The notes under the pieces were generated by a model. It was not told the DNA's origin. It saw nothing but the letters and a program-made list of their open reading frames with translations, and did not search any database. This document shows positions 4,047 through 32,900 of a stretch of DNA of 64,000 bases, in pieces. The translations under genes were made by a program, and so were the position numbers. The stretch covers positions 15,248 through 79,247 of the forward strand of contig JBLYPW010000003.1 in assembly GCA_048538275.1 (NCBI GenBank), written 5' to 3'. Numbering within the stretch: position 1 is the first letter of the stretch; each line of letters starts with the position of its first letter. The stretch is from Candidatus Komeilibacteria bacterium. Lineage in GTDB: Bacteria; Patescibacteriota; Patescibacteriia; UBA1558.

Positions 4047-5357
4047 TCAATGAACGGTGGTAGACCATCGGGGAATGTGTAAGTGTTGGCGTTTGTTTTC
4101 ACCGGGTAACAATTTGTCCCAACGTTTTGTTACTTTGTCACGATTGCCACGTGCGCCATTATTTACTAGTAAGCTGGTTAGAGGGTGAATGGTGTGTTTG
4201 CCCCAGCGGTGATTAATGATATCTATGCTATTAGTCAGTCTGGCTGTTTTAGCAGTAATCTGTGGGTCAATAAATAAATTCATTTGTTTGTTGTTTTGGC
4301 TAGATAATTTTTCTAGCACAATGCCGGTGGCGCGATAGGAGGTGTGCGGCTGATAAATTTCTGAAAAATGCCGGCGCAATAAAGGAAGAATAGGAAGTTC
4401 GCTGTTTACCGATTGGTCTAATTTTATAGTCAAACCATGATAAGCAAAATTTTGTGTTTTTAAATAAAAGCTGATTTGACTGACGGTGAGGTGGTGGCGA
4501 CGCAGTTTATCGGTAGCTGATTCTAAGTTGCGTACTAATTGTGCTAGTAGCCAGTTGGCGTCTTGGCGAGGAGGGGTGAAGGTTTTGGTTTTGCTGATGG
4601 ATTGTTGGGCGGCTGGATGAGGGTTGATGGTATAAACCATTTGACCACGCAGCTCGTGCCAGATCTCTTGCCCAGGTTTGGTTAATTTTTGTTTAACCCA
4701 GTTCTCTGGACGGCTAGCAAAATCATAAGCGGTACGCAATCCTTGGTGTTGTAGATAAGCGGTGGTCTGTAGGCCAAAGCCCCAAATATCAGCTAAAGGG
4801 ATATTTTTTAAAAGAGCGTTAATTTGTTTACCTGGTATCATGGTTAAACCATTGGGTTTGCCTTGTTTGGCGGCCAACTTAGCTAAACTTTTATTGAGGC
4901 TTACTCCTACTGATATAGTAATGCCCAGTTCTTGATTGACGGTTTTACGAATATTGTCAGCGATATTTTTGTAGCTACTATTGAGAGGGCGTTGCAAGCC
5001 AGTGATATCAGCCCAGGCCTCGTCAATAGAATATTCTTCCACACTTTCGGTAAAACGCCGAACAATACTAAACATGCGTTGGGAAAAAATACTATAACTT
5101 TCATAGTCACTGGTGACAATTGCTATTTGTGGCCAGCGTTGTTTTACTTGATAAAGCGGCATGCCACGGGTGACACCCAGAGCTTTAGCTTCATAGCTGG
5201 CAGCGGAAACAATGCCGCGTTCAGCGCCGGTGACAATGGGCTGATTACGCAATTGTGGTTGTAAAGCCTGTTCGCAACTAGCAAAGAAAGCGTCAGCGTC
5301 CAAATGTAATATGGCACGCGGCCAGTCTTGGATTGTAAATAATTTTCCCTCCTGCAT
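4047..5357 (-). CDS. dinB: Y-family DNA polymerase IV (DinB/UmuC family)
   Basis: The N-terminal catalytic motifs LHLDADAFFASCEQ and SIDEAWADITG are DinB-typical. It is about 436 aa with a little-finger region, and lies 37 nt downstream of lexA. Confidence 0.85.
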   Translation of the reverse strand: MQEGKLFTIQDWPRAILHLDADAFFASCEQALQPQLRNQPIVTGAERGIVSAASYEAKALGVTRGMPLYQVKQRWPQIAIVTSDYESYSIFSQRMFSIVRRFTESVEEYSIDEAWADITGLQRPLNSSYKNIADNIRKTVNQELGITISVGVSLNKSLAKLAAKQGKPNGLTMIPGKQINALLKNIPLADIWGFGLQTTAYLQHQGLRTAYDFASRPENWVKQKLTKPGQEIWHELRGQMVYTINPHPAAQQSISKTKTFTPPRQDANWLLAQLVRNLESATDKLRRHHLTVSQISFYLKTQNFAYHGLTIKLDQSVNSELPILPLLRRHFSEIYQPHTSYRATGIVLEKLSSQNNKQMNLFIDPQITAKTARLTNSIDIINHRWGKHTIHPLTSLLVNNGARGNRDKVTKRWDKLLPGENKRQHLHIPRWSTTVH

Positions 5358-5394
5358 ATTGATATTCCCTTTTTATTAAAATACAAATGAGCTG

Positions 5395-5973
5395 TTATTT
5401 ATACTTTCTTATCGCAGCTACGATCACGCCGCCGATTTCTAATTCGTCTTGCGGTATCAATTGCGGATAATTGTCATTGGCAGCTTGTAAAAAAGTCTTT
5501 TTTCCTTGGTGACGTAAGTATTTTAAAGTCCAGTCACCGTCAATCTTGGCCAGGACAATATCATTGTCATGCGCTTGACGTTTACGATCCACCACTACCA
5601 AATCGTGCGGATGAAGACCGGCATCAAGCATGGATTCGCCGCTTACTTCTACCAAGAAACTAGCGGTAGGATTGTCTATCAAGTATTCATCCAATGTTAA
5701 AGTATCTATCAATTCTTCTTCTGCCGGAGAGGGAAAGCCGGCTTGCACACTACCTAACCAAGGTAGGGCAGAGAATAGCTTGCCAGGAATTAAACGTCCG
5801 GTCTTGTCTTGATCCACGATTTGTTCTTCTCGTAGGCGCTTAATTAATTTACTGGCGGCATTTTTAGAAGCATAGCCACAAAGTTTAGCTAGTTCAGCAA
5901 AAGAGGGTAGGCGCTTATTTTGGCGCCAGAAGCGGTGTAGCTGATCAGTTGTTTTTTTTATACTTTCGTCCAT
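5395..5973 (-). CDS. lexA: LexA repressor (S24 peptidase with N-terminal HTH); the track ORF extends to 6042, but the start at 5973 is preferred
   Basis: The HTH is LPSFAELAKLCGYASKNAASKLIKRL, the Ala-Gly cleavage site is QAGF, the serine motif is VSGESM, and the catalytic Lys is in DWTLKYL. The long ORF would place the SOS box inside the coding region, whereas the start at MDESIKK puts the box 15 nt upstream. Confidence 0.8.
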   Translation of the reverse strand: MDESIKKTTDQLHRFWRQNKRLPSFAELAKLCGYASKNAASKLIKRLREEQIVDQDKTGRLIPGKLFSALPWLGSVQAGFPSPAEEELIDTLTLDEYLIDNPTASFLVEVSGESMLDAGLHPHDLVVVDRKRQAHDNDIVLAKIDGDWTLKYLRHQGKKTFLQAANDNYPQLIPQDELEIGGVIVAAIRKYK

Positions 5974-5987
5974 ATAAACATTATAGG

Positions 5988-6001
5988 TGAACGTTCGTTC
6001 A
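5988..6001. promoter_or_regulatory. LexA operator (Cheo-box-like palindrome TGAACGTTCGTTCA, GAAC-N4-GTTC)
   Basis: A perfect GAAC-N4-GTTC palindrome lies immediately upstream of the preferred lexA start. It matches the Gram-positive SOS box consensus CGAACRNRYGTTCG. Confidence 0.55.
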
Positions 6002-6084
6002 CTTGTCAAGGAAATGATTGTGGACAAGTTTGGCTGTAACACAATTCTTTTTTATCCGTCTAAATAAGTAGAGAGGAAAAAAAT

Positions 6085-6261
6085 ATGAATAATGCAAAAG
6101 ACAATCAGATAAAGAATCAACAGCATCCAAAAGCTATGATTAATCGCGGCTGGGTATCTTATGATGCCAAGTCTTTTTTGGTGGACACTGAGAAGCAGTG
6201 GACCCAGGCGGTTTATCATGCGGTTGCTGATTATAGCGGATTGCAATTGGATAGCAATTAA
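6085..6261 (+). CDS. Small hypothetical protein (58 aa)
   Basis: ATG is preceded by GAGAGGAAAAAAAT (a good SD). The product is MNNAKDNQIKNQQHPKAMINRGWVSYDAKSFLVDTEKQWTQAVYHAVADYSGLQLDSN. A hairpin at 6289-6316 follows it. The minus-strand track ORF 6052..6246 is its antisense shadow. Confidence 0.35.
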   Translation: MNNAKDNQIKNQQHPKAMINRGWVSYDAKSFLVDTEKQWTQAVYHAVADYSGLQLDSN

Positions 6262-6288
6262 TTATTCGTAAATAATTTAGATAAACAT

Positions 6289-6316
6289 AACCCCTGGGAT
6301 TACCACTCAGGGGTTC
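6289..6316 (+). terminator. Hairpin AACCCCTG-N11-CAGGGGTT followed by a T-rich tract
   Basis: 8-bp GC-rich stem, then CTTTGTACCTTGTT. Confidence 0.4.
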
Positions 6317-6357
6317 TTTGTACCTTGTTAACTTAAAATCAAAGAAAGGAGGGCGTC

Positions 6358-7554
6358 ATGGCCAAGCGAATATTGATGACTTATTTAGTCTTGACGTGGT
6401 TAGGTTCTATGTTGGTCACTTTACACGCACCGATTTATGTCATGTTTTTATTGCAAACGTTAAATTATTGGCAAGTTGGTTTGGTAAATACTGTCTTCAT
6501 GGTTGGCGTTGTACTGTGGGAAATTCCGACTGGTGCGGTAGCTGATCGTTGGGGACGGAAGTTGTCCTATGTATTGTCACATGTAGTTGTCGGCGGTGGA
6601 TTTCTTATCTACTATTGTGCGGGGGATTGGTTGGGCTATATGTTAGCTGAAGCTGTAATCGCTATTGGCGTCACTCTAGCCTCAGGTTCTTTTCGGGCCT
6701 GGGTGGTGGATAGTTTGGCAGCTCATGGTTGGACCGGGCAATTAAGCTATTTATTTCGTTGGGAAGGACGGGTGATGAAAACTGCTAGTATTGTTGGTGG
6801 TTTAATGGGCGCTTGGTTGGGCGCACGTGATTTGTCCTTGCCCTTTATAGTCTCCGGTATCGGTTTTATAATATTGGCGATTTTTTCATGGTTGGCTATT
6901 GTAGAAGATAGGTTGGTTATAGTAGATGACGCAACACAACAGTTGAGTTGGCGACAATTAATGGTGCATGGTATTGGTATTAGTTGGCAACGACCAGTAG
7001 TGAAGATTATAGTTTTGGTAAGCTTTGTCTTTGGACTGGCCTTCCAACCGCTTAATATGTACTGGCAGCCTTGGTTCCAAGCTCATCAGTTGACCACGCA
7101 GGACTTCGGTTTGATTTGGACAGGTATTGTAATATTCTCATTAGCTGGTAACGAATTGGTGGATTGGTTTAGTCGGCTACATTCCCAACATAGTCGCGTT
7201 TACAGCTATTTGTCGGTGTTTATAGGAGTGGTGATCATTTTTACGGTAGCGGCCGGGCATTGGTATTGGACATTAGTTTGGTTTTTAATACACGAAATCG
7301 GTCGGGGCATGATTCAGCCCTTGCAAAATAGCTGGCTACAAGCAGAGCTTACTAGTCAAACAAGAGCAACGGTTGATTCTTTTGTTTCCATGATCGGTAA
7401 AGCCGGCGCCGCTATCGGTCTGGTCGGATTTGGTTGGTTGACCGAGTTTGCTGGCATTGGCTGGTCTTGGTCATTAGCGGCGGTATTATTAATAATAATT
7501 TTGCCCACGCTATTATGGTTGTGGCAGCAAAATCAACAAAAACCGTCCCTTTAA
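6358..7554 (+). CDS. MFS-type membrane transporter
   Basis: 398 aa with about 12 predicted TM helices. The MFS-like loop GAVADRWGRK (G-x-x-x-D-R-x-G-R-K/R) lies between TM2 and TM3. The RBS is AAAGGAGGG. Confidence 0.6.
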   Translation: MAKRILMTYLVLTWLGSMLVTLHAPIYVMFLLQTLNYWQVGLVNTVFMVGVVLWEIPTGAVADRWGRKLSYVLSHVVVGGGFLIYYCAGDWLGYMLAEAVIAIGVTLASGSFRAWVVDSLAAHGWTGQLSYLFRWEGRVMKTASIVGGLMGAWLGARDLSLPFIVSGIGFIILAIFSWLAIVEDRLVIVDDATQQLSWRQLMVHGIGISWQRPVVKIIVLVSFVFGLAFQPLNMYWQPWFQAHQLTTQDFGLIWTGIVIFSLAGNELVDWFSRLHSQHSRVYSYLSVFIGVVIIFTVAAGHWYWTLVWFLIHEIGRGMIQPLQNSWLQAELTSQTRATVDSFVSMIGKAGAAIGLVGFGWLTEFAGIGWSWSLAAVLLIIILPTLLWLWQQNQQKPSL

Positions 7555-7595
7555 AAGGGGCGGTTTTGCCTTATAGCACTGATGTCATTTAAATA

Positions 7596-8384
7596 TTATT
7601 TCCAAGGATTTTCCACTGCGTCAGCAAAGCCAAATATTGTTTCAAATAGAACATTTATCATATTAACGATGTTTTTGTGTTGTATTATAACAACTAAAGA
7701 ATTGTCTGGGGTTAAGAAAGCAACCTTAGAGTTGTAGAGAAGAATGAGGTTGTCAACAGGCAGTTGATTTTCTTTTAACAATCTCATATTCCACATCCTA
7801 TCGGAAAATTTTTTGTAGCTGGAGTGGGACATTTGCTTTCTAACAGTATTTATAAGTTCATTTGTAAATAAAGCTTTGGTAATAATTCTTTTTTGTATTA
7901 TTTTTTTAAAAAAAGATTCCCACTGTTCATCAGTCAATAAGGATAATTCTGCTTCCCCAGATTTATTATTTTCCAGTACTTTAAACTCAGCACCTTGTGG
8001 CATATTAGATATTTCTTCATAGACTTGTTTAAAACCCAGAGCTGATTCGTAAATTTCTATTTGCGGCAATGTATTTTCAGTACTGGTCAGAGCGTTTAAC
8101 TGGGGGATTAGATTTTTAAATATATTAACATTCGTTTGTAATGTTTTAACAAGGTGAGAAGGCGGCGTGGGCGTAATTAATATTTTGGTTCCTTTTTTTG
8201 ATTCTTGTAGGACGTTTTTGTTAATTAAATTTTTTATATGAAAATAGGCATTAGTGCGACTAAGCTTAGCCTTATGAGCTATTTGACTAATAGGAGATTT
8301 GCCCAATTCTAAGGCAGCGAGATATATCTTAACTTCTTGATCGGTAAAGGAAAATTTTTGCAGTATTTGGGTTATTCCATCCAT
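7596..8384 (-). CDS. TrmB-family transcriptional regulator (N-terminal wHTH)
   Basis: The N-terminus FTDQEVKIYLAALELGKSPISQIAHKAKLSRTNAYFHIKNLINKNVL resembles the TrmB HTH. The protein is 262 aa. Confidence 0.5.
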   Translation of the reverse strand: MDGITQILQKFSFTDQEVKIYLAALELGKSPISQIAHKAKLSRTNAYFHIKNLINKNVLQESKKGTKILITPTPPSHLVKTLQTNVNIFKNLIPQLNALTSTENTLPQIEIYESALGFKQVYEEISNMPQGAEFKVLENNKSGEAELSLLTDEQWESFFKKIIQKRIITKALFTNELINTVRKQMSHSSYKKFSDRMWNMRLLKENQLPVDNLILLYNSKVAFLTPDNSLVVIIQHKNIVNMINVLFETIFGFADAVENPWK

Positions 8385-8527
8385 ATTAATAAGGTATTGT
8401 ATTGTTTATGTAGTATATAATATAGAAAACTATATTATTTGTCAAATAATTTTTTCAACAGTATATATTGATAAAATGCTGTAAATAGCCTATTATTGAC
8501 ATTTTATATCAGCATTATAAAAAAGAA

Positions 8528-8556
8528 TTGACAGTTTATTCAGTTTAGGTTATACT
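8528..8556 (+). promoter_or_regulatory. Sigma70-like promoter: TTGACA-N17-TATACT
   Basis: A near-consensus -35/-10 pair with 17-bp spacing lies about 75 nt upstream of the 8631 ORF. Confidence 0.4.
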
Positions 8557-8630
8557 GTTTTATTAACCTAAAGGTGGGTTAAGGAATATTGAAAACTTAA
8601 TAAAGGTAAACACCTCAAGAGGAGAGAAAA

Positions 8631-8930
8631 ATGAGTAAAAATTTTAAGAGAGATGATATGGGGAACTGGTCGGGTGATTTAACGGTAAAGAAAAAGGTGA
8701 TGAGTATGAGAGTAATTTTTTTTGGGTTGGTCTATGGATTCAGCGCTACGTTTTATGGCGCAATTGTGCTATATAGAGTAGTTATAAACGAGGCGCCCCG
8801 CGGCGATTTTGTACTTGCTGGAATCACGATGCTTATGGGTCTCTCAGTTCTGGTTTGGAGCATTTTTCAGACCTTTAAGAGCTATTTCAGCTCAAAAGTT
8901 GATTTATATCAACGGATTACCTGGAAATAA
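8631..8930 (+). CDS. Small membrane protein, hypothetical
   Basis: 99 aa with two hydrophobic helices and the RBS GAGGAGAG. Confidence 0.5.
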   Translation: MSKNFKRDDMGNWSGDLTVKKKVMSMRVIFFGLVYGFSATFYGAIVLYRVVINEAPRGDFVLAGITMLMGLSVLVWSIFQTFKSYFSSKVDLYQRITWK

Positions 8931-8983: not shown

Positions 8984-9222
8984 GTAAAATTATTCATCAG
9001 GTTGAGATAAGGAGATGATATGGAGCAAGTTTATTGATTTTTATATATAGATTTAGTAATGATGCACCTCTCATAGCTGAGTAAAAAAATGCAGTGAGGT
9101 TTTACGGATTTAGTTAATTATATTTATTAATATCCTACGTTATGTAGGTTTTTTTATTTATTTTAAGATTGTTTAATAAAATATTTGAACAATCAGATAA
9201 GCATAGGTATAATGTTAGCATT

Positions 9223-10266
9223 ATGAGAATACTAGGTATAGAAAGTAGTTGTGATGAGACAGCCTTTTGCCTGCTCAAGATAAGCGGCTCTAAAATTGAA
9301 GTGGAGCGCAATTTAGTGTCGTCACAAATTGATATTCACTCTCGTTATGGCGGAGTGGTGCCGGAAGTGGCTGCCCGTCAGCATACGGAAGTGATTATTC
9401 CTTTATTACAAGAGACCTGGGGTAGAAAATATCGTCCGCAGGATATTGATTTGTTGGCTGTCACGCAGGGGCCGGGTTTGATCACCTCTTTGCTCATCGG
9501 TTTGCAAACTGCTCAGACCTTATCTTATGTTTGGCAAAAACCATTACTTGGCGTCAATCATTTAGCCGGCCATCTTTATTCTAGTTGGTTGGAGAGTGAC
9601 GAGTTGAATGCTAAGAGTAAAAATATTTTTCCGGCTTTGGGTTTATTGGTCTCCGGCGGCCATACGGAATTGGTTTTAATACGAGATTATGATAGTTATA
9701 AATTAATTGGTCATACAAGGGATGATGCGGCTGGAGAGGCTTTTGATAAAGTAGCTAAAATATTGGGTATGGGTTATCCGGGGGGGCCAGCCATTGCCGA
9801 AGCGGCCGCCGAAGGCAATCCGAGCGAGATAAATTTTCCACGGCCGATGCTTAATAGCAAAAATTTTGATTTTTCTTTTTCCGGTTTAAAAACCGCTGTG
9901 CGTTATTATGTATCAGAACATCGTTTACGTGAACGCCAGATTAATAATGTTTGTGCGAGTTTTCAGCAGGCGGCAGTGGATGTATTGGTAGAAAAAAGCA
10001 AACGAGCTATAGACAAATATCAGGTTAAAAGTTTGCTATTGGGTGGTGGCGTAGCGGCTAATAAAAAATTGCGTAAAGAATTATTGATCATGGCTGATCG
10101 TCAGGGTGTGCAATTTTATTGTCCTCGGATGAAATATACTGGGGATAATGCCGCTATGATTGCTTTGGCTGCTTATTTTCGTTGGCGACATTTATCCATT
10201 AAACAACGGAAGGATTTATTGACCAATTGGTATCGTTTAGAACCAAAACCAAATTGGGATTTATAG
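9223..10266 (+). CDS. tsaD: tRNA N6-adenosine threonylcarbamoyltransferase TsaD (Kae1/Gcp family)
   Basis: MRILGIESSCDETAFCLL...HSRYGGVVPEVAARQHTE is the canonical TsaD N-terminus with the metal-binding motif region. The track ORF begins 18 codons upstream (9169), and the internal Met is the conserved start position. Confidence 0.85.
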   Translation: MRILGIESSCDETAFCLLKISGSKIEVERNLVSSQIDIHSRYGGVVPEVAARQHTEVIIPLLQETWGRKYRPQDIDLLAVTQGPGLITSLLIGLQTAQTLSYVWQKPLLGVNHLAGHLYSSWLESDELNAKSKNIFPALGLLVSGGHTELVLIRDYDSYKLIGHTRDDAAGEAFDKVAKILGMGYPGGPAIAEAAAEGNPSEINFPRPMLNSKNFDFSFSGLKTAVRYYVSEHRLRERQINNVCASFQQAAVDVLVEKSKRAIDKYQVKSLLLGGGVAANKKLRKELLIMADRQGVQFYCPRMKYTGDNAAMIALAAYFRWRHLSIKQRKDLLTNWYRLEPKPNWDL

Positions 10267-10355
10267 TAATAAATTTTTTTAACTACATTTTCAGTTAAGT
10301 CCGCTTCTTATATGGGCGGATTGATTTTTTAGCTAAAATAAGGTATAATTAAAAT

Positions 10356-10796
10356 ATGAAGCAAAAGCATAAAAGTAAAAATGAGGCAGAAACATTGAAT
10401 TTAGCTAAAGAGTTAGCTAAAAATTTTAAAGGTGGTGAAGTTGTTGCCTTGACCGGAGATTTGGGTGCCGGTAAGACGGTTTTTACCAAAGGACTAGCTC
10501 AAGGGGTGGGCTATAAAAAAGTCATTACTAGCCCTACTTTTGTTTTGATGAAAGTTTATCATCCGGACAATTTGACGGTGAAAAATTTTGTTCACGTTGA
10601 TTGTTATCGGATAGATTCTTCTGATGATCTTTATGGCATTGGTTTTAACGATTATTTAGGTAGAGCAGATACGGTAGTAGCTATAGAGTGGGCGGACAAA
10701 GTGAGTGATTTATTACAGAATAAAAAAGGTCATATTATCAATGTAAAAATTAAGGCGGGGCGTAAGGATTTAGAGAGAATAATTGACATAAATTAA
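10356..10796 (+). CDS. tsaE: tRNA threonylcarbamoyladenosine biosynthesis ATPase TsaE (YjeE)
   Basis: Contains the P-loop ALTGDLGAGKTVFTKG and the SPTFVLM motif. It is about 146 aa and lies immediately downstream of tsaD. Confidence 0.8.
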   Translation: MKQKHKSKNEAETLNLAKELAKNFKGGEVVALTGDLGAGKTVFTKGLAQGVGYKKVITSPTFVLMKVYHPDNLTVKNFVHVDCYRIDSSDDLYGIGFNDYLGRADTVVAIEWADKVSDLLQNKKGHIINVKIKAGRKDLERIIDIN

Positions 10797-10798
10797 TT

Positions 10799-12100
10799 AT
10801 GTATAATAAAGAAAATCCATTAGCAGGTAATAATTATGAAAATAAAGAAGTGGCGGAGGGCTTGATAGAAGCCGCTTTGCTTTATTCTCGCAAGGTTAAT
10901 GAAGGTAATAATGGTATTATCAACCAGTTGCAGCTGGATCAGTTAGCGCCGGAAATTTTAAATTATTTTCGTGAGGCTAGCGATGGGCAAATAAATGAAC
11001 AAGAGAGTGTAGCTACTAAATTATTAAAAGTGTATTCACCGGAAGTGGGTAAAACAGAAGCTGCGCGTCAGCAGCAAGCTTATAAAATTTGGGAAGCGGC
11101 GGAAGACAAGAGTGCTTTAGCCAAGGTGCCACGCTTATTATTTTATAAAGAAATAACTATAAAAAATCAGGAATTATTGGAGCGCCTGAGTAATGATGGT
11201 GTGCATGCCATGGACGGCAAGGTAGCGGTTTTGGTGATGGATTTTATTGAGGGGGAAGATTTAGCCATGTACTTAGTTAAGCAAATAGTAGCTCATCATC
11301 CAGAACTGGCTGATTTGCAACAAGCTTTGCAGGATGGCGCAGATATTTCTTTCGCACAATTACATAGTGGCATGTCGGCCGCTTTGGGGTTTGCTACAGC
11401 AGGCGGTCAGCATCGCAATTTGAATGACAATATTTTTGAAGAACAAAAAGTGAATAATGATAATGTTAAGTTAATGGTTGAATTCATGCGACGCAAGGGT
11501 ATAATTATTAATTCAGATATTTTACGAAAGGTTAAAAATACCATTGATCTGTTTCATGCCAATGATTTCCAACACGGAGATTTACATGAGCGCAATATCA
11601 TGTTGCAGTTTGATGAGGCACATAATTTAGCGGATGTTTTTATCATTGATTATGGTCAGCCACCGGCGGAGTTGGAAGAAGAGGGTAGTAAAATTAAATT
11701 GAATGATTATTTATTGTATGCGCGTTATTGGGATTTGACTTTGACGCCAGAGGAAAGAGAAGCAAGCGAGCATAATAAATTGTGGCAAAAACTAGATCGG
11801 TTGGAAAAACGATTACAAGGACAGGCGGATTGGATAACCTTGGCGGACCAGTTGGTGGATAAAGAAAAAAAACTGACCGTAGTCAGTTTAGAAAGATTAT
11901 TTAAAATCAATATTGGTAAGATAACGATGGATCAAGAATTATATTGGGACATAGTCATGGTGGCTTGGCGCAAGTTATTAAAGACAAGACCAAATTTAGC
12001 TTATGAGCACTTGGGACAGGTAGTGGCTAGTAATTTGCCGATTTTTATTCGCAATAAGGTGCGTCAGTTTTGGTCAGCTTTAGAAAAGAGTAAAGCCTAG
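10799..12100 (+). CDS. Protein-kinase-like fold protein (Bud32/RIO/APH-type atypical kinase signature), function unknown
   Basis: It has a hinge-like VAVLVMDFIEGEDL, a catalytic-loop-like HGDLHERNIML, a DFG-like FIIDYGQ, and a candidate VAIK lysine in ATKLLKVY. Its start lies 3 nt after the tsaE stop. Confidence 0.5.
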   Translation: MYNKENPLAGNNYENKEVAEGLIEAALLYSRKVNEGNNGIINQLQLDQLAPEILNYFREASDGQINEQESVATKLLKVYSPEVGKTEAARQQQAYKIWEAAEDKSALAKVPRLLFYKEITIKNQELLERLSNDGVHAMDGKVAVLVMDFIEGEDLAMYLVKQIVAHHPELADLQQALQDGADISFAQLHSGMSAALGFATAGGQHRNLNDNIFEEQKVNNDNVKLMVEFMRRKGIIINSDILRKVKNTIDLFHANDFQHGDLHERNIMLQFDEAHNLADVFIIDYGQPPAELEEEGSKIKLNDYLLYARYWDLTLTPEEREASEHNKLWQKLDRLEKRLQGQADWITLADQLVDKEKKLTVVSLERLFKINIGKITMDQELYWDIVMVAWRKLLKTRPNLAYEHLGQVVASNLPIFIRNKVRQFWSALEKSKA

Positions 12101-12282
12101 GTTTTCCCAGGCTTTAAAAATTGATTAATTGTCTGTATAGACAATGTTTGTTTATTGGCTATTTTAGGGTGGTCATATAAAGTCACCGCACCGTTTTCGT
12201 GGAAACTTATATTTTTCCAGCCCCGAGCTCTAAAAGTTTCTATCAGGGCTTTTTTTTGCTGGGGGTTTAGCTTTTTTAGCAT
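12097..12282 (-). CDS. Small basic protein (61 aa), weak HicA-toxin-like pattern
   Basis: On the minus strand the RBS AAGGAAAAACC precedes the ATG. The product MLKKLNPQQKKALIETFRARGWKNISFHENGAVTLYDHPKIANKQTLSIQTINQFLKPGKT loosely resembles the HicA consensus (..LIKLLEKNGW...GSHH.F.HP.G..TVP.H..KDI..GTL..ILKQAGL). Confidence 0.35.
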   Translation of the reverse strand: MLKKLNPQQKKALIETFRARGWKNISFHENGAVTLYDHPKIANKQTLSIQTINQFLKPGKT

Positions 12283-12372
12283 ATTGGTTTTTCCTTTATG
12301 TAGCCTATTTTTTGTTTGGATGTCTAATCTATCATATTATGAATAGTTTGTCAACCCTATGTAAAAGAAGCT

Positions 12373-14064
12373 TTACTCTGTTTTATCAAACACTTCTTCT
12401 AAAGAAGTGATGCCGTCTTTGGCTTTGAGTAAACCATCTTGAATCATTGTTACCATCCCGTGTTGGATGGCAATATTTTGTGCTTCTTCTTCTGACACTT
12501 TGCCGGACATAACCATTTTTTCAATATCAGTATTCATGGTAAGCACTTCATAGACACCAATGCGGCCTTTGTAGCCAGCATGACATTTATCACAACCCAC
12601 AGCTTTATAAAATTTGAGTTTATCTAACTCTTCTGTTGATAAGGCATCACCAGATTGGGGAGAGATATTGCTGAGTTCATCTTTTACCTTTTGTAGAGTA
12701 TCATCGTCCGGTTTATATTCTTGTTTACAATGTTCACAAAGTTTTCGGACTAAACGTTGGCCAATAAAAGCATTGATAGCAGGAGCGAGTAAAAATGGTT
12801 TGACGCCCATTGCTAAAAAACGAGGTATGGCACCGGCTGCCGAATTAGTATGTAGGGTTGATATCATCAGGTGTCCGGTCAAGGCGGCATTGATGGCCAC
12901 TTCAGCTGTTTCCAAGTCGCGAATTTCACCCACCATCACAATGTCTGGGTCCTGGCGTAAAATAGAGCGCAGGCCGGACGCAAAAGTATAGCCCTTGCTA
13001 GGATCAATTTGGCTTTGATTGATGCCAGCCAGTTTGTATTCTACCGGATCTTCTAAAGTAATGATTTTACTATTTTCATTATTCAGTTTATTGAGAATAG
13101 CATACAGTGTAGTCGTTTTACCTGAACCGGTGGGACCGGTAGTCACGATCATGCCATTGGGACGATTTATATTTTCTTCCATGTCTTGGAAAGAGCGGCC
13201 GCGCAAACCCAGCTGTTCAAATTTTAATCCAACGGAAGAAGATTTTAATAAACGCATGACAATAGATTCGCCATAGCTAGTGGGCATAGTAGAAACACGC
13301 ACATCAATTTTGTCATCGGGTAGAAATATAGTGAAACGACCATCTTGGGGGGCGGTGGTCAGATTTAGCTTTAATCCGGATAACAATTTTACACGAGCGG
13401 TAATTTTAGGCCAATCACTTTTATTCATGGCAGCCATGGTGGTTAGCTCACCGTCAATACGCAGACGCAGCTTAACACTTTTTTCCTCGGCTTCTACATG
13501 AATGTCAGAGGTGTCAAAACGTAAGGCGCTAGCAATGATGAGGGTGACGATTTGGCTGGTGTTGGCTGTATTTAGTTTATTTTGTAAATCTTTTTTGTCC
13601 TGGATACTGTCTTGTAGCTTGGTTAGTTCATCAGCGTCTATCTTTACGCCAGTGCTGATTTCTTGTTGTTTTGGTACACGAGCATACACTTCCATACCCT
13701 TGTCAAAACTTGTTTTAGAAACTAAATACAATTCATACTCTGCGTGCTGCTCTTTTGCCAGAGCTTGACTGGCATTTTGCACGGCTTTATTTTGTGGGTC
13801 GGTAGAAGCGAGGCGCAATTTTTTACCATCATAAAAAAAACAAAGTAAGGGTAACTTGCGTGCTTCGCTTTCTTCTAGCAAGGCCAAAGCTTCTGGGTCA
13901 ATCGGGTAGTCACGCAGATTTATATAAGACAGGCCGCTGCGTTGGGCGCGTTGTTTAATCTCGTCTTCTTGTTCATCAGCTTTGATATTGGCTAATTTAC
14001 TGGCTAGCTCTTCAGCCTTTTCATCACTGCTAATATGAAGTTGTGGTTTTTTATCCTCGGTCAT
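12373..14064 (-). CDS. pilB: Type IV pilus/type II secretion assembly ATPase (PilB/GspE family), paralog 1
   Basis: Shows the Walker A GPTGSGKTTT, the Asp box EDPVEY, Walker B DIVMVGEIRD, the His box GHLMISTLHT, a C-terminal tetracysteine (CEHC...CDKC) and an N-terminal GSPII_E_N-like domain. Confidence 0.85.
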   Translation of the reverse strand: MTEDKKPQLHISSDEKAEELASKLANIKADEQEDEIKQRAQRSGLSYINLRDYPIDPEALALLEESEARKLPLLCFFYDGKKLRLASTDPQNKAVQNASQALAKEQHAEYELYLVSKTSFDKGMEVYARVPKQQEISTGVKIDADELTKLQDSIQDKKDLQNKLNTANTSQIVTLIIASALRFDTSDIHVEAEEKSVKLRLRIDGELTTMAAMNKSDWPKITARVKLLSGLKLNLTTAPQDGRFTIFLPDDKIDVRVSTMPTSYGESIVMRLLKSSSVGLKFEQLGLRGRSFQDMEENINRPNGMIVTTGPTGSGKTTTLYAILNKLNNENSKIITLEDPVEYKLAGINQSQIDPSKGYTFASGLRSILRQDPDIVMVGEIRDLETAEVAINAALTGHLMISTLHTNSAAGAIPRFLAMGVKPFLLAPAINAFIGQRLVRKLCEHCKQEYKPDDDTLQKVKDELSNISPQSGDALSTEELDKLKFYKAVGCDKCHAGYKGRIGVYEVLTMNTDIEKMVMSGKVSEEEAQNIAIQHGMVTMIQDGLLKAKDGITSLEEVFDKTE

Positions 14065-14190
14065 AAGTTTAACCTTTATGCTATTCTAGAATACAGTTTT
14101 TTTTCGCTTTTTACAAGCTAAAAATCTGATCATAAAAATAAAACCCCTATCATTTTAAAAGATGAGAGGGGTAAAATTGTATATATAATT

Positions 14191-15228
14191 TTATAATTTT
14201 GCTTGGCTTTTTTTAACGGCACGAGCGGCTACCCAACGGACAATTTTAGCAAATACTTGACCGGATTGTAATTTACGGAATAATAATGTCCAAGCGACAT
14301 TTTGCCAGGCAGTAAAGACAGCGCTACCAAATAAGAATATAGCGGCGCTTATAACCAGGGCAGCGCCCAAGAAGATATAGAATAATTGGGAGTTGCCACT
14401 CAGCATGCCAATGACTAATAATGGAGAGGCCAGCAGTAGACTCGCCAGGCTCATAATAAAAGCCAAGGCAATGTAAACGATCAAAGCGATAATAGCCATT
14501 TCAATACTGATGAGCCAGTGTTGGGCAAATAGACGCCAACCATGACCAAAGGATTCCCAGAATTTATGCTTTTCTAAAACTACAAAGTTGATAGCGTATT
14601 TGGTTACAAAAGATAGGATGATAGTGAGCGGGACGAAAATGACTAGGGTTATTATGGTCATAGGTAGAGCCCAGGCGCTGCCATTAGCCACCAATATCGT
14701 CAGTAACGGAGTTATTAATAAAGTAAGCAATATAAAGATAATTACCTTGGCTAAAAGATTTAGACCAAAGGCGCGCCAGAAAAATTTATGACTATTTTGC
14801 AGAAGACGAGGCCATTTGAAAGATTTGTCTTCCCTGATGTCATCAGCCGCTTGAATGATTGTAACTTGTGAGACAGTAGCCAACCAAGCCATGACAATGA
14901 CTAATAATATCCCCAACAGGATGGTCAGTAATACGGCTAAAAGATTAGCTAGGGGCAGTTGCCAAATAGCTTGCCAAGCAGTGCCATAGATGGTTATAGT
15001 TCTGGCAATAGCATCATAGACGTTCGGTTGATTACTTAAACGGGATAATTCTACAAAGAGGCTTTTATATTCTGCTACTGTGCCAAAAAACATGGCAAAT
15101 AATCCTAAAAGCCAGAAAAATTTGTATTTTTTTACCATTTCCCAAGAGCGAGCAATGATATTACGATAGAGTGAAGTCATACTTACCCTCCTTTTTGCTA
15201 AATAATTAAGCGCGGTTATTGCCGCCAA
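14191..15228 (-). CDS. Polytopic membrane protein, hypothetical
   Basis: 345 aa with multiple TM helices and no catalytic motif recognised. A terminator-like hairpin lies at about 14120-14155. Confidence 0.5.
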   Translation of the reverse strand: MAAITALNYLAKRRVSMTSLYRNIIARSWEMVKKYKFFWLLGLFAMFFGTVAEYKSLFVELSRLSNQPNVYDAIARTITIYGTAWQAIWQLPLANLLAVLLTILLGILLVIVMAWLATVSQVTIIQAADDIREDKSFKWPRLLQNSHKFFWRAFGLNLLAKVIIFILLTLLITPLLTILVANGSAWALPMTIITLVIFVPLTIILSFVTKYAINFVVLEKHKFWESFGHGWRLFAQHWLISIEMAIIALIVYIALAFIMSLASLLLASPLLVIGMLSGNSQLFYIFLGAALVISAAIFLFGSAVFTAWQNVAWTLLFRKLQSGQVFAKIVRWVAARAVKKSQAKL

Positions 15229-15278
15229 TCAAATACTGATAATAGGCATATATCCGCGCTTATATTTTACCACGATTA

Positions 15279-17096
15279 TTAATTGGCGAAAAGAGCGGCG
15301 AATTCATCTTTCTCCAAAGTTTCTTTAGCCAAAAGAGTGTCGGCAATTTTATCCAATTGTTTGCGATGTTTGCTTATCACTTCATTAGCTTTGTCAGCAC
15401 ATTGGTTGATGATATTGGATACTTCCTTATCAATCGCTTCTGCTGTTTTTTCGCTATAATCACGGCGTTCGTGAATTTCGTTTCCTAAGAAAATCATTTC
15501 TTCTTTTTCGCCAAAAGTTCTCGGTCCAAGATTTTGGTTCATGCCATATTGGGTGACTAGCTGGTTAGCCAATTTTGTGGCACGTTGTAAGTCATTACTA
15601 GCTCCGGTTGTTACTTGACCAAAGATATTTTTTTCAGCTAGATAACCGCCGAGCATGACGCTTATTTCCGCTAAAAATTCAGAATAAGTGTGCAGGTGTT
15701 TATCTTCGGTAGGGAGTTTCATGGTATAGCCGGCAGCGCGTCCGCGTGATATGATGGAGACTTTATGTACCGGATCAGCTTCGGGCAAGATATGAGCTAT
15801 GAGAGCATGACCACCTTCATGATAGGCTGTAACTTTCTTTTCTTTGTCAGATAAAATATGACTTTTGCGTTGCGGTCCGATGGTAACTTTTTCTAATGCT
15901 TCTAATAAATCTTCCATATTTATTTTTTTACGATCTTCCCGACCCGCCAAGATAGCCGCTTCATTGAGAATATTAGCCAAATCTGCTCCGGCTAGACCGG
16001 GGGTTCGTTCGGCGATAGGGCGTAAAGCAACGTCAGCCGATAGCGGCTTGTTAGTGGCATGTATTTTGAGAATAGCTTCTCTTTCCTTTATATCCGGTAA
16101 ATCAATAACCACCTGACGGTCAAAACGTCCTGGTCGCAGGAGAGCCGGGTCTAGGACGTCAGGGCGATTGGTCGCTGCCAGAACAATAATATTGGTAGTT
16201 TGTTCAAAGCCATCCATTTCTACCAAGATTTGATTGAGTGTTTGTTCACGTTCATCGTGTGAACCGCCCAAACCAGCGCCACGACGACGACCAACGGCAT
16301 CTATTTCATCAATAAAGATTATACAAGGAGAAGTTTTTTTAGCGCGTTTGAAAAGATCACGCACTCGAGAAGCACCTACGCCGACAAACATTTCTACAAA
16401 TTCAGATCCAGAAATATGAAAAAATGGAACCTTAGCTTCTCCTGCCACAGCCCGAGCTAAAAGCGTTTTTCCAGTACCGGGAGCGCCAAGTAACAGCGTG
16501 CCTTTTGGTATTTTAGCGCCTAAGTCAAGGAATTTTTTGGGATTGCGTAAAAATTGTACCACTTCTTCTAGTTCTTGTTTGGCCTCCGTACTGCCAGCTA
16601 CGTTTTTGAAAGTAACATTATTTTTACCCAAAGGACTAATTTTTGCACCAGACTGCCCAAAAGATAAAGCTCTATTATTTGCACCCTGTACTTGGCGAAA
16701 CATAAAGAATATGAATAAACCAATGAATAGGATTGGCAGTACAATGGGTAAAATAGCAGTTAGCCAAATGGAGCTTTCCGTATTGGTGGCAATATCTAGA
16801 TTCAAATTTTGTAGCTTTTCACCACTGACGCCATAATTGCGCAGGGTTGTCGTCAGCGATTCGCCAACTTCTTTTTTAGCTAGTTTGGTAGAGCCGTCAG
16901 TCAGCTTGACTACTAGCTCTTCGCCGTCCACTTGGATATTATTGATTTGATCAGACTGAATATATTGTACCAGTTGATTGAGATTTATTTTTTCCGATAC
17001 TTGCTGTTTGGTATTGTATAAGCTGAAAAAAGAAGCTAATAACAAGAATACAAATAGAAAGACAAAGAAATTTTTTGTCAGATTATTTTTTTTCAT
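15279..17096 (-). CDS. ftsH: ATP-dependent zinc metalloprotease FtsH
   Basis: An N-terminal TM region is followed by the AAA Walker [19 protein letters not shown], Walker B IIFIDEID, the SRH, and the zinc site HEGGHAL. Confidence 0.9.
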
Positions 17097-29151: not shown

Positions 29152-29928
29152 ATGCCAGAATATTTAGATAAAGACGTACAACAACAAAAAGAGGGCCAAC
29201 AACCCTCTAATCCTTATTTATATTTAGGTGTTTTAGTGGGCGCAATGGTAATTTTTGGTATGACTTTTTGGCAAGTACAGCATAATATAAAAGCTCCCTT
29301 TGCCGACGATAATTCTGATAATAATGATAATCAAGTAATAGCTAATGCCGATAATCTTGATATTGAAAAACTCAAAAAACAAGATACGGACGGTGATGGT
29401 TTATCAGATTATTTGGAGCAATATGTTTATGGCACCTCCTCTTATATCGCGGACACGGATTCGGATGACATAAGTGATTCTGACGAAGTATTACAAGGTA
29501 CGGATCCATTGTGTGGTCAGGATGGTGGCTGCGCTCAGCCTATTAATACGCCCAGCGCAATGACTGGTGATGATTCTTTGGATGCTTTAATCAATAATGA
29601 TCAAGTTAATAATGATACCGGCGCATCCTCAGCAGATGGCATGACGCGTCAGCAATTAACGGATATTTTAGTACAGATGGGTTTCAATGCCACGGACCTG
29701 GCCAATGTAAGTGATCAAGATTTAGCTTTATTATACGACGAGGCTTTGCGTATGGCGCAAAATAGTGGTGATACTATAAACCCAGTCAATGATACTGGCA
29801 ATATCACGGCGGAGGAAATTCGCCAAGCCTTATTAGACAGTGGTGTTAGCGCCAGTCAGCTGGAAGGTATCACCGATGAAGAATTGATACAACTTTATCA
29901 GCAAGCTATTAGTAGCCAAGCACAATAA
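29152..29928 (+). CDS. Membrane-anchored Asp-rich protein with dockerin/thrombospondin-type-3-like Ca-binding motifs and a duplicated C-terminal helical motif
   Basis: Has a TM helix (LYLGVLVGAMVIFGMTFW), the motifs DTDGDGLSDYLE and DTDSDDISDSDE, and two approximately 35-aa repeats (...LTDILVQMGFNATDLANVSDQDLALLYDEA / ...IRQALLDSGVSASQLEGITDEELIQLYQQA). Its stop overlaps the start of the giant gene (TAATG). Confidence 0.5.
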   Translation: MPEYLDKDVQQQKEGQQPSNPYLYLGVLVGAMVIFGMTFWQVQHNIKAPFADDNSDNNDNQVIANADNLDIEKLKKQDTDGDGLSDYLEQYVYGTSSYIADTDSDDISDSDEVLQGTDPLCGQDGGCAQPINTPSAMTGDDSLDALINNDQVNNDTGASSADGMTRQQLTDILVQMGFNATDLANVSDQDLALLYDEALRMAQNSGDTINPVNDTGNITAEEIRQALLDSGVSASQLEGITDEELIQLYQQAISSQAQ

Positions 29929-32900
29929 TGTTTAATCCCCAACAAAAATTAATCTCTAGTATTGTATTGGTGGTGATGTTGTTTTTTGTTATCAGTGGTG
30001 CTGTGGTGACTCCACAGCCGGCTCATGCTTCTACGTTTGGTGTCATTGCCGTCAATACCGCCAAGTGGGTGTGGGAGAAAGTGGGTGATATTTATACTGC
30101 CTTAAAGTCGCGTTTAAGCACGACATTAATTACTAATTCGGTTGATTTATTTGCGCAGCGCATGGCGGTAAATATGGCTAAAACACTAGCTACTGGGGGA
30201 AGAGGTCAGCAGCCGATGTTTAGTACCAAGGTTTTTAATGATGTTGTGAAGGATGCAGCTGGGGCAGCGGCTGGTGATTTTATTGGGCAATTGAGTAGTG
30301 CGTGGGGTGATTTAGGCATTAATTTATGTGAGCCCAGTCTGGATGTAAAGGCTACCATCACTATGTCATTGCTTAAATCGCAGAAAGCGCCAGAACCAAA
30401 ATGTGATCTTGCTAGTGTAGTACGTAACTGGGATAGTTTTATTAAAACAAATACTGACCCCAAGGCCTTGGCTGAAGGCTTACAGGTGCAGTTTCAAACG
30501 GGAAAAAGTGATTTTTCTGCGTCTTTTGCTTTGAATAATAAATTATTGAACCAGATAAAAAGTGATGAACTGGTAGCATTGTTTGATACAGAAAGCCAAG
30601 GATATAAAAGCAAAACCAATACTACGAATACCGAAATTCAAACTCCTAGCTCTTCGGTAGAAGACACAGCGGAAGCACCAGCTAGAGAGGCTAGCAATGC
30701 GCAGCTGGCTAAAACCTTTGCTGCTATTACCAGTCAGGATACTATCTTTGGCAGGGCTTTGAGTACATTTGGTAATACTTTTCTTTCCCAGTTATTAAAT
30801 CGTTGGATCTTAGATGGCATGAATAAACTGAATAATTGGAAAAATAGTCAGGTAGCCAGTACTGGCGGGGCGAATAGCATAAATTTTGATAATAATTCTG
30901 GGCCTGGTCCTGAAGCGGCTAGCGCCTACTATAGTAATTTAATATCAGTGAGTTTCAATAGCGTAGATGACTATACACCAACGTCTGATTTTACCATTTG
31001 TCCAACTACGGGTATTGTCCCATATAATAATTGTGTGATGAATCAAAAGTTTTATTCTGCGTTCAATCGTACTCAGCCCATGACAGTGCAACAAGCGATT
31101 GATGCTAAATTATTGAGCCCTGATTTGCCTTTGATTAGCCAGGATGATCCACGTAACAATGATGTTAATTATTGTTATAATAGTGCTTTGTGTTATTCTA
31201 ATTTGCAAAAAATGCGTTTGGCTCGTTTGATTCCCTTGGGCTGGGAAATTGCTGCTAGCATAAGCTCAGCTAACACTCCTGCGACCATGGGTGAGGTTTT
31301 GGCGGCATTTGATAACCCAGATAGCCCTTATCATAATTTGATTGATCCCAATTGGGTATTAAAAGAGCCACGAGCACAATGTTTGGCTATGGGTCCTGGA
31401 CCTCAATTACAGTCTATTGGCAGTGACCAACGTACGGAGATGTGTGTGGACAGTCAGACTTGTCTGCGTAGTGATGACAATGGTGAATGTTTGCCGGGAG
31501 CGTGGGGCTATTGTACACGCGAAGAAAATATTTGGCGCTTTGGTGGTCAGCAGTGTTCTCCGGCTTATGCTTCTTGTCGTAATTATAAGGCTGATGGGCA
31601 GACATACAGCTATATCAAAGATACTTTAGATTTTTGTACGGCTGATGAAGTGGGTTGTCAGTGGTATAGCGTAGCTCAAGAATTGGGTGCTGCTGCCACT
31701 GAGACTTTTAGCCCTCCCCAAGTAGATTTTAATAATGTTCCTTCCACTATTACATATGACCAGGCGTCGGCTGATCAGTTTTGTTTGCAGCGGGGCTATG
31801 ATTTTGCTCAAAGTTATGACCAAGAGGGAGCCGGCACAGGAGATATCATTTGGAATAGTGAGCAGAGTAGCTGGGAGTTGAATACCGCTGCTGCGCCACA
31901 TGCTATCATCTCAGATATAAGCTGTGTGAGGCAAGGGTATGATTGGCTGGCTGATGAAAACATTTATCTGAATGCTCAGGCTGGTGATTGCGACGCTACT
32001 GATGCCGGTTGTACTAAGTTGTTACCGATCCAATGGGGAGTTAATTTATTATATAATGGTGGTTTTGAAAAAGTAGGTTCTAATAATAACAGGCCAGACG
32101 GCTGGTATTGGTCTGACACTGATGTAAGTTTAACTGACAACAGATCAGAAGTTTTCGCTGGTGAACGAGCTGTCAGCACTATGAATAATTATAGTTATGT
32201 CTATACTGATGTGCCATTGATTGGTGGCCTACCTTATTATATTGCCATAGCCGCCAAAACCAATGATAGTAAAGCGATGGGTGTGACCATTAAGTTTTAT
32301 GATAGCAACGACGCTCTTATCATGCCTACTAATGATGATGATATTGATATAGGCGATAGTAGTGTGGTGAATTGGCGTGAGGGCTGTGGTGGTGGCGTCT
32401 GTCATTTTAGTGGCGACCTGACTATAACCAATCAATATGTTAAATATGACTTGCCTTTTATAGCACCGGAGGGAGCTGTCAAAATTATTATTGGTATGGG
32501 CACTGGTGGTGCCGGTTCTGGTGATGTTTACCTTGATAATGTCCAGCTCAGCCTTGGTAATTCAGCTATGAGTTATCGTGATTATAATAGTAATTCTTTT
32601 AATTATCTTAAAATAGCCCCGGATTATTTAGATTGTAGTAATAGTAGCAGCGTAGAATGTGCCAATTATGCCCCTAGCTGTACGGCTGAGGAAATGGGAT
32701 GCCAATTATATACTCCGGTAAATGGTGATCCGGCCGTGGCGGGCGTGGTAAATAGCGGTGATTATTGTAGTCAAAGTTGTGCCGGATTGGATCAATATTG
32801 GCAAAAACAAACCACTATTGAAAATATGTTTGGTGATGATCCGGCCGGTGCTTTTGTGAATTTTATACCCAGCAGCGCCCAACAATGTCAGGTGCAAGAT

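Follow-up and report, generated by a model that had tools for sequence, protein, structure and literature searches.

A protein-kinase-like family of candidate phyla radiation bacteria with a micro-protein partner and a facultative linkage to tsaE

The modification of tRNA with N6-threonylcarbamoyladenosine at position 37 (t6A37) is one of the few that are universal. Its synthesis relies on accessory subunits, which are TsaB and TsaE in bacteria and Bud32, Cgi121 and Pcc1 in archaea and eukaryotes. We have analyzed a stretch of 64,000 nucleotides (hereafter, the window) from a metagenome-assembled genome (MAG) of Candidatus Komeilibacteria, a group within the candidate phyla radiation (CPR, also called Patescibacteria), in which tsaD and tsaE are followed by an open reading frame (ORF) of 433 amino acids, the NCBI ‘hypothetical protein ACKKL5_03520’ on a contig of 110,939 bp. 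The original prediction for this locus, made from the DNA alone, was that a kinase-fold gene placed in the slot of tsaE, with no tsaB nearby, could represent a hybrid or new regulatory form of the t6A machinery, or else an unrelated small-molecule kinase. Our results show that the ORF encodes a protein-kinase-like (PKL) enzyme from a previously undescribed family with no assigned function, and that the genes of this family are associated in the genome both with tsaE and with a gene for a micro-protein. With moderate confidence, we favor the view that this family, restricted in our sample to CPR, consists of atypical kinases or ATPases that are active, that work with the micro-protein and that in some lineages have a regulatory connection, facultative in nature, with the TsaD-TsaE step or with translation.

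The AlphaFold2 (AF2) model of the 433-aa protein is a kinase fold, and the motifs that had drawn attention to it (the hinge, HGDLHERNIM at residues 259-268, IIDYG at residues 282-286 and a β3 lysine, K77) are all present in the translation and conserved in 48 diverse homologues. Twelve positions are invariant or nearly so in this set (K77, E87, M147, G152, D154, H259, D261, H263, R265, N266, D284 and D303), and the consensus of the family includes a GNNG loop (G36), the catalytic loop H259-x-D261-L-H263-E-R265-N266, D284-(F/Y)-G and D303. Because the canonical catalytic set is kept across such diverse members, the enzyme is very probably active, and the sequence NEGNNGII would be its nucleotide loop. 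The traits that distinguish the family are a helical insert of about 75 residues past the hinge and a long, poorly conserved helical C-terminal region. Only 19 residues separate D284 from D303, and the APE motif is absent.

Within the kinase clan this family is a member of no established family, and it belongs to none of the Bud32, RIO, APH, UbiB and HipA families. The catalytic-loop stretch carries every Pfam, PDB and PADLOC kinase match of the window protein; a profile search of PDB sequences gave a match confined to the catalytic-loop/DFG stretch, and only 150-190 of the 433 residues can be aligned to any solved kinase (159 to 4ww5_A). The comparison with Bud32, RIO, APH and choline kinases suggested by the original prediction yielded no assignment, as all scores of the window protein were sub-threshold: 21.3 bits for EcKL (cut-off 22), 20.4 for RIO1 (PF01163, cut-off 22, over residues 107-164 only), 19.4 for APH (cut-off 23.2), 16.5 for Kdo (cut-off 21.3) and 15.7 for Pkinase (cut-off 31.7). 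The best NCBIfam match was arch_bud32, with 24.5 bits (E 1.6e-5) against a cut-off of 125, and other Bud32 models reached 16.2-18.1 bits against cut-offs of 199-447; taken together, the models tested (TIGR03724, PRK14879 and PRK09605) gave 13-24 bits against 125-447. Over the 48 members, Pfam matches were distributed among Pkinase (39 members), APH (31), Kdo (25), PK_Tyr_Ser-Thr (21), RIO1 (13), ABC1 (10) and EcKL (10), with a single member matching the choline-kinase model PF01633. The strongest Pkinase match was 1.4e-11, and a few relatives exceeded the gathering score (e.g., P0016, with 43.3 bits).

With Bud32/PRPK the kinase has in common the protein-kinase-like fold, the lack of a long activation segment, the HGDL...N motif in the catalytic loop and, in some genomes, a genomic association with a Kae1/TsaD-family t6A system. 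Unlike Bud32, which is a minimal protein of ~200-260 aa, it has 433 aa with the insert and the C-terminal region described above, it coexists with TsaE, and it is linked to t6A genes in only ~18% of loci; neither Cgi121 nor Pcc1 families appeared in the neighbor-gene tallies of kinase loci. RIO kinases are chiefly archaeal and eukaryotic, and differ from this family in that PF01163 was matched by only 13 of the 48 members, with no RIO-specific N-terminal elements (as in Rio1 or Rio2) detected and no ribosome-maturation context seen at the kinase loci. With the APH, choline and Kdo kinases (PF01636, PF01633 and PF06293) it shares a C-lobe that carries a helical insertion, as well as the Brenner HxDxxxxN motif. 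The core residues K77, E87, D261, N266 and D284 are those of Hanks-type Ser/Thr kinases such as PknB and YabT (PF00069), but the family lacks their APE motif and P+1 loop, has an activation segment of ~19 residues, and carries His in place of the catalytic-loop Lys. Finally, a length of ~450-480 aa, a DxHxxN loop and occurrence in CPR are features in common with the UbiB/ABC1 kinases.

The family is large. When 1.84 billion cluster representatives were searched exhaustively with a profile, at least 341 clusters (50% identity) passed E<1e-30, almost every one of them 420-460 aa long, where a word-indexed search had found 8 relatives only. Scanning GTDB at one genome per species contributed ~40 true family loci, and a metagenome scan yielded additional ones. 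Wherever the record of a true locus in the GTDB scan names a credible taxon, that taxon is patescibacterial (MAGs of Parcubacteria/Paceibacteria, Andersen-, Uhr-, Morani-, Buchanan-, Zambryskii- and Ryanbacteria, among others), and in this sample the family is exclusive to CPR. Many ‘binchicken’ third-party MAG records (TPA) labelled ‘uncultured Gammaproteobacteria bacterium’ (L012, L013, L020, L022, L023, L026, L031 and others) hold CPR-type gene content together with the kinase, and their taxonomic labels look unreliable. Once kinases more than 90% identical had been dropped, 60 loci remained, 56 of them with enough upstream sequence to be scored for linkage.

In 10 of these 56 non-redundant loci, representing about four lineages, tsaE is found within 3.2 kb of the kinase, whereas ~0.45 loci would be expected (binomial P ~3e-11, a naive value that ignores kinship; counting lineages, at least 4 of ~25, P ~5e-5). 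It lies directly upstream on the same strand in seven loci (the window, L015, L022, L023, L026, L060 and L091, L015 being the same locus as L001), with gaps of -32 to +4 nt. In the other three a tsaD-tsaE pair is located 1.2-3.2 kb away, downstream of the kinase in L028 and L052 and divergent, head-to-head, in L087. When the Pfam families of the two genes preceding the kinase were tallied over 59 loci, TsaE also came first, with 8 occurrences (MFS, 6; Der GTPase, 4-5; PBP, 4). The consistent fusion or adjacency with a Kae1/TsaD gene that would be expected of Bud32 was not found, as tsaD is within 3.2 kb in 4 of the 56 loci and none of ten long family members is a fusion. In the TsaE tree, L028 and L087 are sisters, and L052 and the window each stand alone; linked kinases are 19-33% identical between groups (the family median is 25%), and the kinase and TsaE trees are roughly congruent. 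The linkage between kinase and tsaE is real but facultative, and since it recurs in about four deeply divergent CPR lineages, co-transcription at the window locus is unlikely to be a pure accident. The near-zero or overlapping spacing suggests co-transcription and translational coupling of the two genes. The kinase ORF does adjoin tsaE immediately, as the original prediction had noted, starting 2 nt past its stop codon, and is tightly coupled to it. L003, considered as a second tsaE-kinase case, was rejected because its partial upstream ORF is the end of an insertion sequence (IS)-type transposase and not TsaE.

More regularly than by tsaE, the kinase genes are accompanied by a gene for a micro-protein of 50-77 aa, the steadiest partner observed for the family, which lies right after the kinase in 21 of 57 non-redundant loci. 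The two genes are usually convergent (they are co-directional in L024, L066 and L067), and the micro-protein gene is located -4 to +102 nt past the kinase in all 21 loci, usually -4 to +36 nt. A hidden Markov model (HMM) built from 15 such ORFs gave 34 matches among the 7,715 small ORFs in all loci, distributed in 20 of the 57 non-redundant loci. The first-listed match in each locus group adjoins the kinase, members outside the seed were recovered, and one further copy resides inside a longer ORF in L026. Other copies are found in L003 (1545..1718), L001 (7356..7538), L005 (4266..4418), L009 (7577..7837), L028 (11321..11500) and L052 (4361..4528), among others, and the micro-protein was detected in 8 of the 9 scorable tsaE-linked loci. 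Its shared pattern is (L/F)Tx(E/Q)QKK.I....A(K/R)G(F/Y).V.F....V.I.K.DG, and the AF2 single-sequence model, a fairly confident one (predicted local distance difference test, pLDDT, 78), has an alpha-beta-beta-beta-alpha arrangement. It matched no known family; the gene is unannotated or, where it has been called, has no name or family match. A possible parallel may exist in the quinone-less Saccharibacterium Southlakia, where the 483-aa UbiB/ABC1 kinase SEML1_0816 is followed, with a 4-nt overlap, by the 62-aa hypothetical ORF SEML1_0815, both of them non-essential by transposon sequencing (Tn-seq) (PMC10633639).

The t6A genes of the window are themselves canonical (Table 1). The order of tsaD, tsaE and the 433-aa ORF is that of the original prediction, all three ORFs being present, with tsaD and tsaE scoring above the cut-offs of their curated models. 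The longest ORF for tsaD starts at TTG 9169, and ATG 9223 yields the canonical MRILGIESSCDET N-terminus. In an alignment with 15 CPR TsaEs, the motifs of the window TsaE (Walker A GDLGAGKT, SPTF, HVDCYR and EWA) are all intact, and Walker A, SPTF, HxDxYR and EWA are retained in every kinase-linked TsaE. The TsaD and TsaE of a bacterial TsaB-TsaD-TsaE system are both there, and a canonical tsaE is incompatible with the idea of a kinase occupying its slot. The description of a continuous operon has to be qualified. The 89-nt spacer between tsaD and tsaE contains terminator-like and promoter-like signals, which are consensus matches only (the fold z-score is only -1.3). Because these signals separate the two genes, tsaE and the kinase look like the tight unit, which suggests that tsaD could be a separate transcript. 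A consensus scan also found a promoter-like TTGAAC-17-TATAAT before tsaD, at 9185..9213 (TATAAT 9208..9213, 9 nt before the tsaD ATG). The short distances between TATAAT boxes and start codons (6 nt for tsaE and 9 nt for tsaD) hint at leaderless or near-leaderless transcripts.

Table 1. Coordinates of the t6A genes, the kinase gene and its motifs, and the micro-protein gene in the window.
Feature	Position	Strand	Evidence
tsaD, t6A transferase subunit, 347 aa	9223..10266	+	TIGR03723 404.5 bits (cut-off 296); PF00814 312 bits
Terminator-like hairpin with T-run, between tsaD and tsaE	10298..10332	+	consensus scan, sequence reading
Promoter-like TTGATT-17-TATAAT, overlapping the hairpin and ending 6 nt before the tsaE ATG	10321..10349	+	consensus scan
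tsaE, t6A ATPase subunit, 146 aa	10356..10796	+	TIGR00150 102.3 bits (cut-off 60); PF02367 125 bits
PKL enzyme of an undescribed family (CPR-only in sample), 433 aa	10799..12100	+	motifs, AF2 model
Putative glycine-rich nucleotide loop NEGNNGII, residues 34-41	10898..10921	+	G36 nearly invariant; flanked by predicted strands 31-35 and 39-45
β3 lysine K77 (in LLKVY)	11027..11029	+	invariant in alignment A1, nearly invariant in A3
αC glutamate E87	11057..11059	+	invariant in alignments A1 and A3
Hinge VLVMDFIEGEDL, residues 144-155	11228..11263	+	M147, G152 invariant; D148, D154 nearly
Family-specific helical insert, ~residues 156-232, hinge to αE	11264..11494	+	model helices 155-166, 168-178, 185-196, 208-232
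Catalytic loop HGDLHERN, residues 259-266	11573..11596	+	D261, R265 invariant in 48 members; H259, H263, N266 nearly
Metal-binding DYG, residues 284-286	11648..11656	+	D284 invariant in 48 members
Invariant D303, then helical C-terminal region, residues 305-432	11705..12097	+	weak sequence conservation; model
11-bp palindromic hairpin at the kinase/micro-protein convergent junction	12091..12116	.	terminator-like scan
Micro-protein gene, 61 aa, convergent with the kinase, 3' ends overlapping by 4 nt	12097..12282	-	HMM

The absence of tsaB from the window, on which the original prediction leaned, was confirmed by phmmer searches with TsaD against all ORFs of at least 80 aa and by Pfam and NCBIfam scans of its small and mid-size ORFs. 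When the window and all collected loci were searched (phmmer, jackhmmer, TsaD HMM, motif regular expression and NCBIfam), only two weak short ORFs were found, and none of the sampled CPR loci has tsaB next to tsaD-tsaE. The two candidates, L033 5533..5973 (-), of 146 aa, and L078 914..1456 (-), of 180 aa, are very short, divergent TsaB-like ORFs at a distance of ~4 kb from the kinase. On TIGR03725 both reach 33 bits (E 6e-8), with only a 37-residue SPGPFSATRASVSIANALAFAWDIPVV core aligning, and their relatives bear PF00814 matches; a protein database search with the L033 ORF returned 5 relatives, none from Komeilibacteria. The Tn-seq tables of Southlakia epibionticum list TsaC, TsaD, TsaE and a TsaB of 393 nt (130 aa), all non-essential, with tsaE directly upstream of tsaB (PMC10633639). 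Together, the L033 and L078 ORFs and the 130-aa Southlakia protein suggest that CPR TsaB is often cut down to one subdomain and missed by standard annotation. A literature search found no paper linking TsaE or TsaB with CPR/Patescibacteria.

How could these elements work together? In the reading we favor, the kinase would be an ATP-dependent phosphotransferase, acting as a protein-directed kinase or an ATPase switch rather than on small molecules, and the micro-protein would be its regulator or its substrate. The recurrent coupling with tsaE would reflect facultative regulation that connects the kinase with the TsaD-TsaE step of t6A synthesis or, in a looser sense, with translation; the kinase would not be an orthologue of Bud32, nor would it replace TsaE or TsaB. 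Several observations weigh against such a role. No t6A gene is within reach in 46 of the 56 family loci (82%), and the six loci in which tsaE precedes the kinase without tsaD form one clade in the TsaE tree, counted here as one event. The kinase is missing from all 6 other CPR tsaE loci that were sampled by way of TsaE. Among them are L100-L104, from close relatives of the window genome, which share the DinB(IMS)-LexA-MFS-tsaD-tsaE synteny with the window (4047..8930 for the DinB-LexA-MFS comparison) and whose TsaE and TsaD are 75-78% and 66-69% identical to those of the window; tblastn detected no remnant of the kinase after their tsaE. L105, also among the six and from an 886-kb genome, has the window order minus the kinase (tsaD-tsaE-[116 aa]-T2SSE-membrane protein-FtsH), and L106 and L107 also have tsaD-tsaE without it. 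The nearest homologue of the kinase, in L003, is 38% identical, compared with 66% for the adjacent T2SSE ATPase, and so fast a divergence is unlike that of a core partner of a universal enzyme. No fusions between TsaE and the kinase were found, the ten long family members (488-558 aa) bearing kinase matches only, and a micro-protein was found in no more than 37% of loci. The lack of APE and of a long activation segment, and a catalytic loop without the Ser/Thr-kinase lysine, weaken the case for a protein rather than a small-molecule substrate. The conservation of gene order proposed as a check for the locus has, in sum, a double answer: linkage to tsaE recurs in about four lineages but is absent from the closest relatives and from most of the family.

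The small-molecule alternative of the original prediction is an APH, choline-kinase or Kdo-type enzyme standing beside tsaE by inherited synteny and with no functional tie to it. We consider it rather unlikely, and the gathering score of no such family was reached to confirm it. The Brenner-type HxDxxxxN loop without the Ser/Thr-kinase lysine, the helical insert past the hinge and the short DFG-to-helix segment without APE are what APH/ChoK-type enzymes would show, APH, Kdo and EcKL models match 31, 25 and 10 of the 48 members, and the weak matches of a Foldseek comparison with the PDB, which found nothing more specific, include APH(4) and kinases for ethanolamine, choline and MTR. The neighborhoods are also otherwise heterogeneous (MFS, PBP, glycosyltransferases). 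Yet Pkinase is both the commonest and the strongest Pfam match, and drift alone would hardly bring the kinase so close to tsaE that the spacing is near-zero or overlapping in two separate lineages, with linkage in about four. A dedicated micro-protein suggests a protein-protein system, and CPR genomes have very little small-molecule metabolism. A toxin-antitoxin or conflict module, in which the kinase would be a HipA-like effector countered by the micro-protein as antidote and whose variable placement would include the vicinity of tsaE, would explain the fast evolution of the kinase, its absence at the syntenic site in close relatives, the tightly linked small partner and perhaps the IS-transposase fragment upstream of the kinase in L003. 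Several kinase loci adjoin tRNA-synt_1b or CysRS genes, and HipA and HipT have aminoacyl-tRNA synthetases as their targets; weak PADLOC matches to the kinase defense proteins PD-T4-6, MkoA and mad6 point the same way. We nonetheless regard this module as improbable. The best PADLOC stretches are mostly the ~45 residues around the generic catalytic loop, for which reason a defense-system reading was rejected, and no HipA Pfam match was found for the window protein or in the scan of 48 members. Moreover, convergent orientation is atypical for type II toxin-antitoxin pairs, only one copy is present in any locus examined, the rough congruence of kinase and TsaE trees suggests vertical inheritance, and in 63% of loci the micro-protein is missing or escaped detection.

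A Bud32-like accessory subunit within a hybrid bacterial/KEOPS t6A machine, possibly compensating for a missing TsaB, seems to us equally improbable. The review literature describes Bud32 as the functional analogue of TsaE, an ATPase that serves as a ‘molecular switch’ (PMC9654439). With a canonical TsaE already encoded, a Bud32-like protein would only duplicate its role. That arch_bud32 was the best NCBIfam match, that the linkage to tsaE and tsaD is non-random, that the L087 kinase divergently adjoins tsaD, that tsaB is missing from the window and from beside tsaD-tsaE in the sampled CPR loci, and that the Southlakia tsaB directly follows tsaE, the position held by the kinase in the window, would all fit such a machine. 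The Bud32 scores, however, remained at 13-24 bits against cut-offs of 125-447, the protein has 433 aa with inserts instead of a minimal kinase, and it diverges fast. The hybrid arrangement of the original prediction is further disfavored by the 82% of family loci that are unlinked to t6A genes, by the tsaD-tsaE pairs without kinase in the nearest relatives of the window genome, and by the short TsaB-like genes of L033 and L078, which also bear the kinase. We found no evidence of the kinase replacing a t6A subunit. Quite doubtful as well, although slightly less so, is that the kinase and the micro-protein form an accessory or a regulator, specific to CPR, of the TsaD-TsaE machinery, in which they might act as an ATP-driven switch or phospho-regulator of TsaE or TsaD and compensate for a truncated or missing TsaB. 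If this were true, it would constitute a third architecture of the universal t6A system, in addition to TsaBDE and KEOPS.

Other features of the window can be recorded here. A block formed by tsaD, tsaE, a variable position, a T2SSE/PilB-like ATPase (-), a membrane protein of ~340 aa (-) and FtsH (-) recurs in distant CPR genomes (window 9223..17096; L105 2946..8438; L052 from 5514 onward), with the kinase and micro-protein as the variable occupant after tsaE. Between the MFS gene and tsaD, and in comparison with L100-L104, only the window has a TrmB-like helix-turn-helix gene (7596..8384, -) and an ORF for a 99-aa membrane protein (8631..8930, +). Farther away there are two giant ORFs, 29928..38567 (+), of 2,879 aa, and 41740..46875 (+), of 1,711 aa, which may encode large surface proteins; a 258-aa ORF just upstream of the first one (29152..29928) contains a bacterial TSP3 repeat.

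What the data yield is an apparently active kinase family of at least 341 clusters, a previously unannotated micro-protein that accompanies it, and an operonic association with tsaE that is statistically non-random but facultative. If the link to t6A is real, a universal tRNA modification would turn out to be regulated in a new way. Even if it is incidental, the kinase and micro-protein constitute a well-defined pair, open to testing, within the ‘dark matter’ of CPR.

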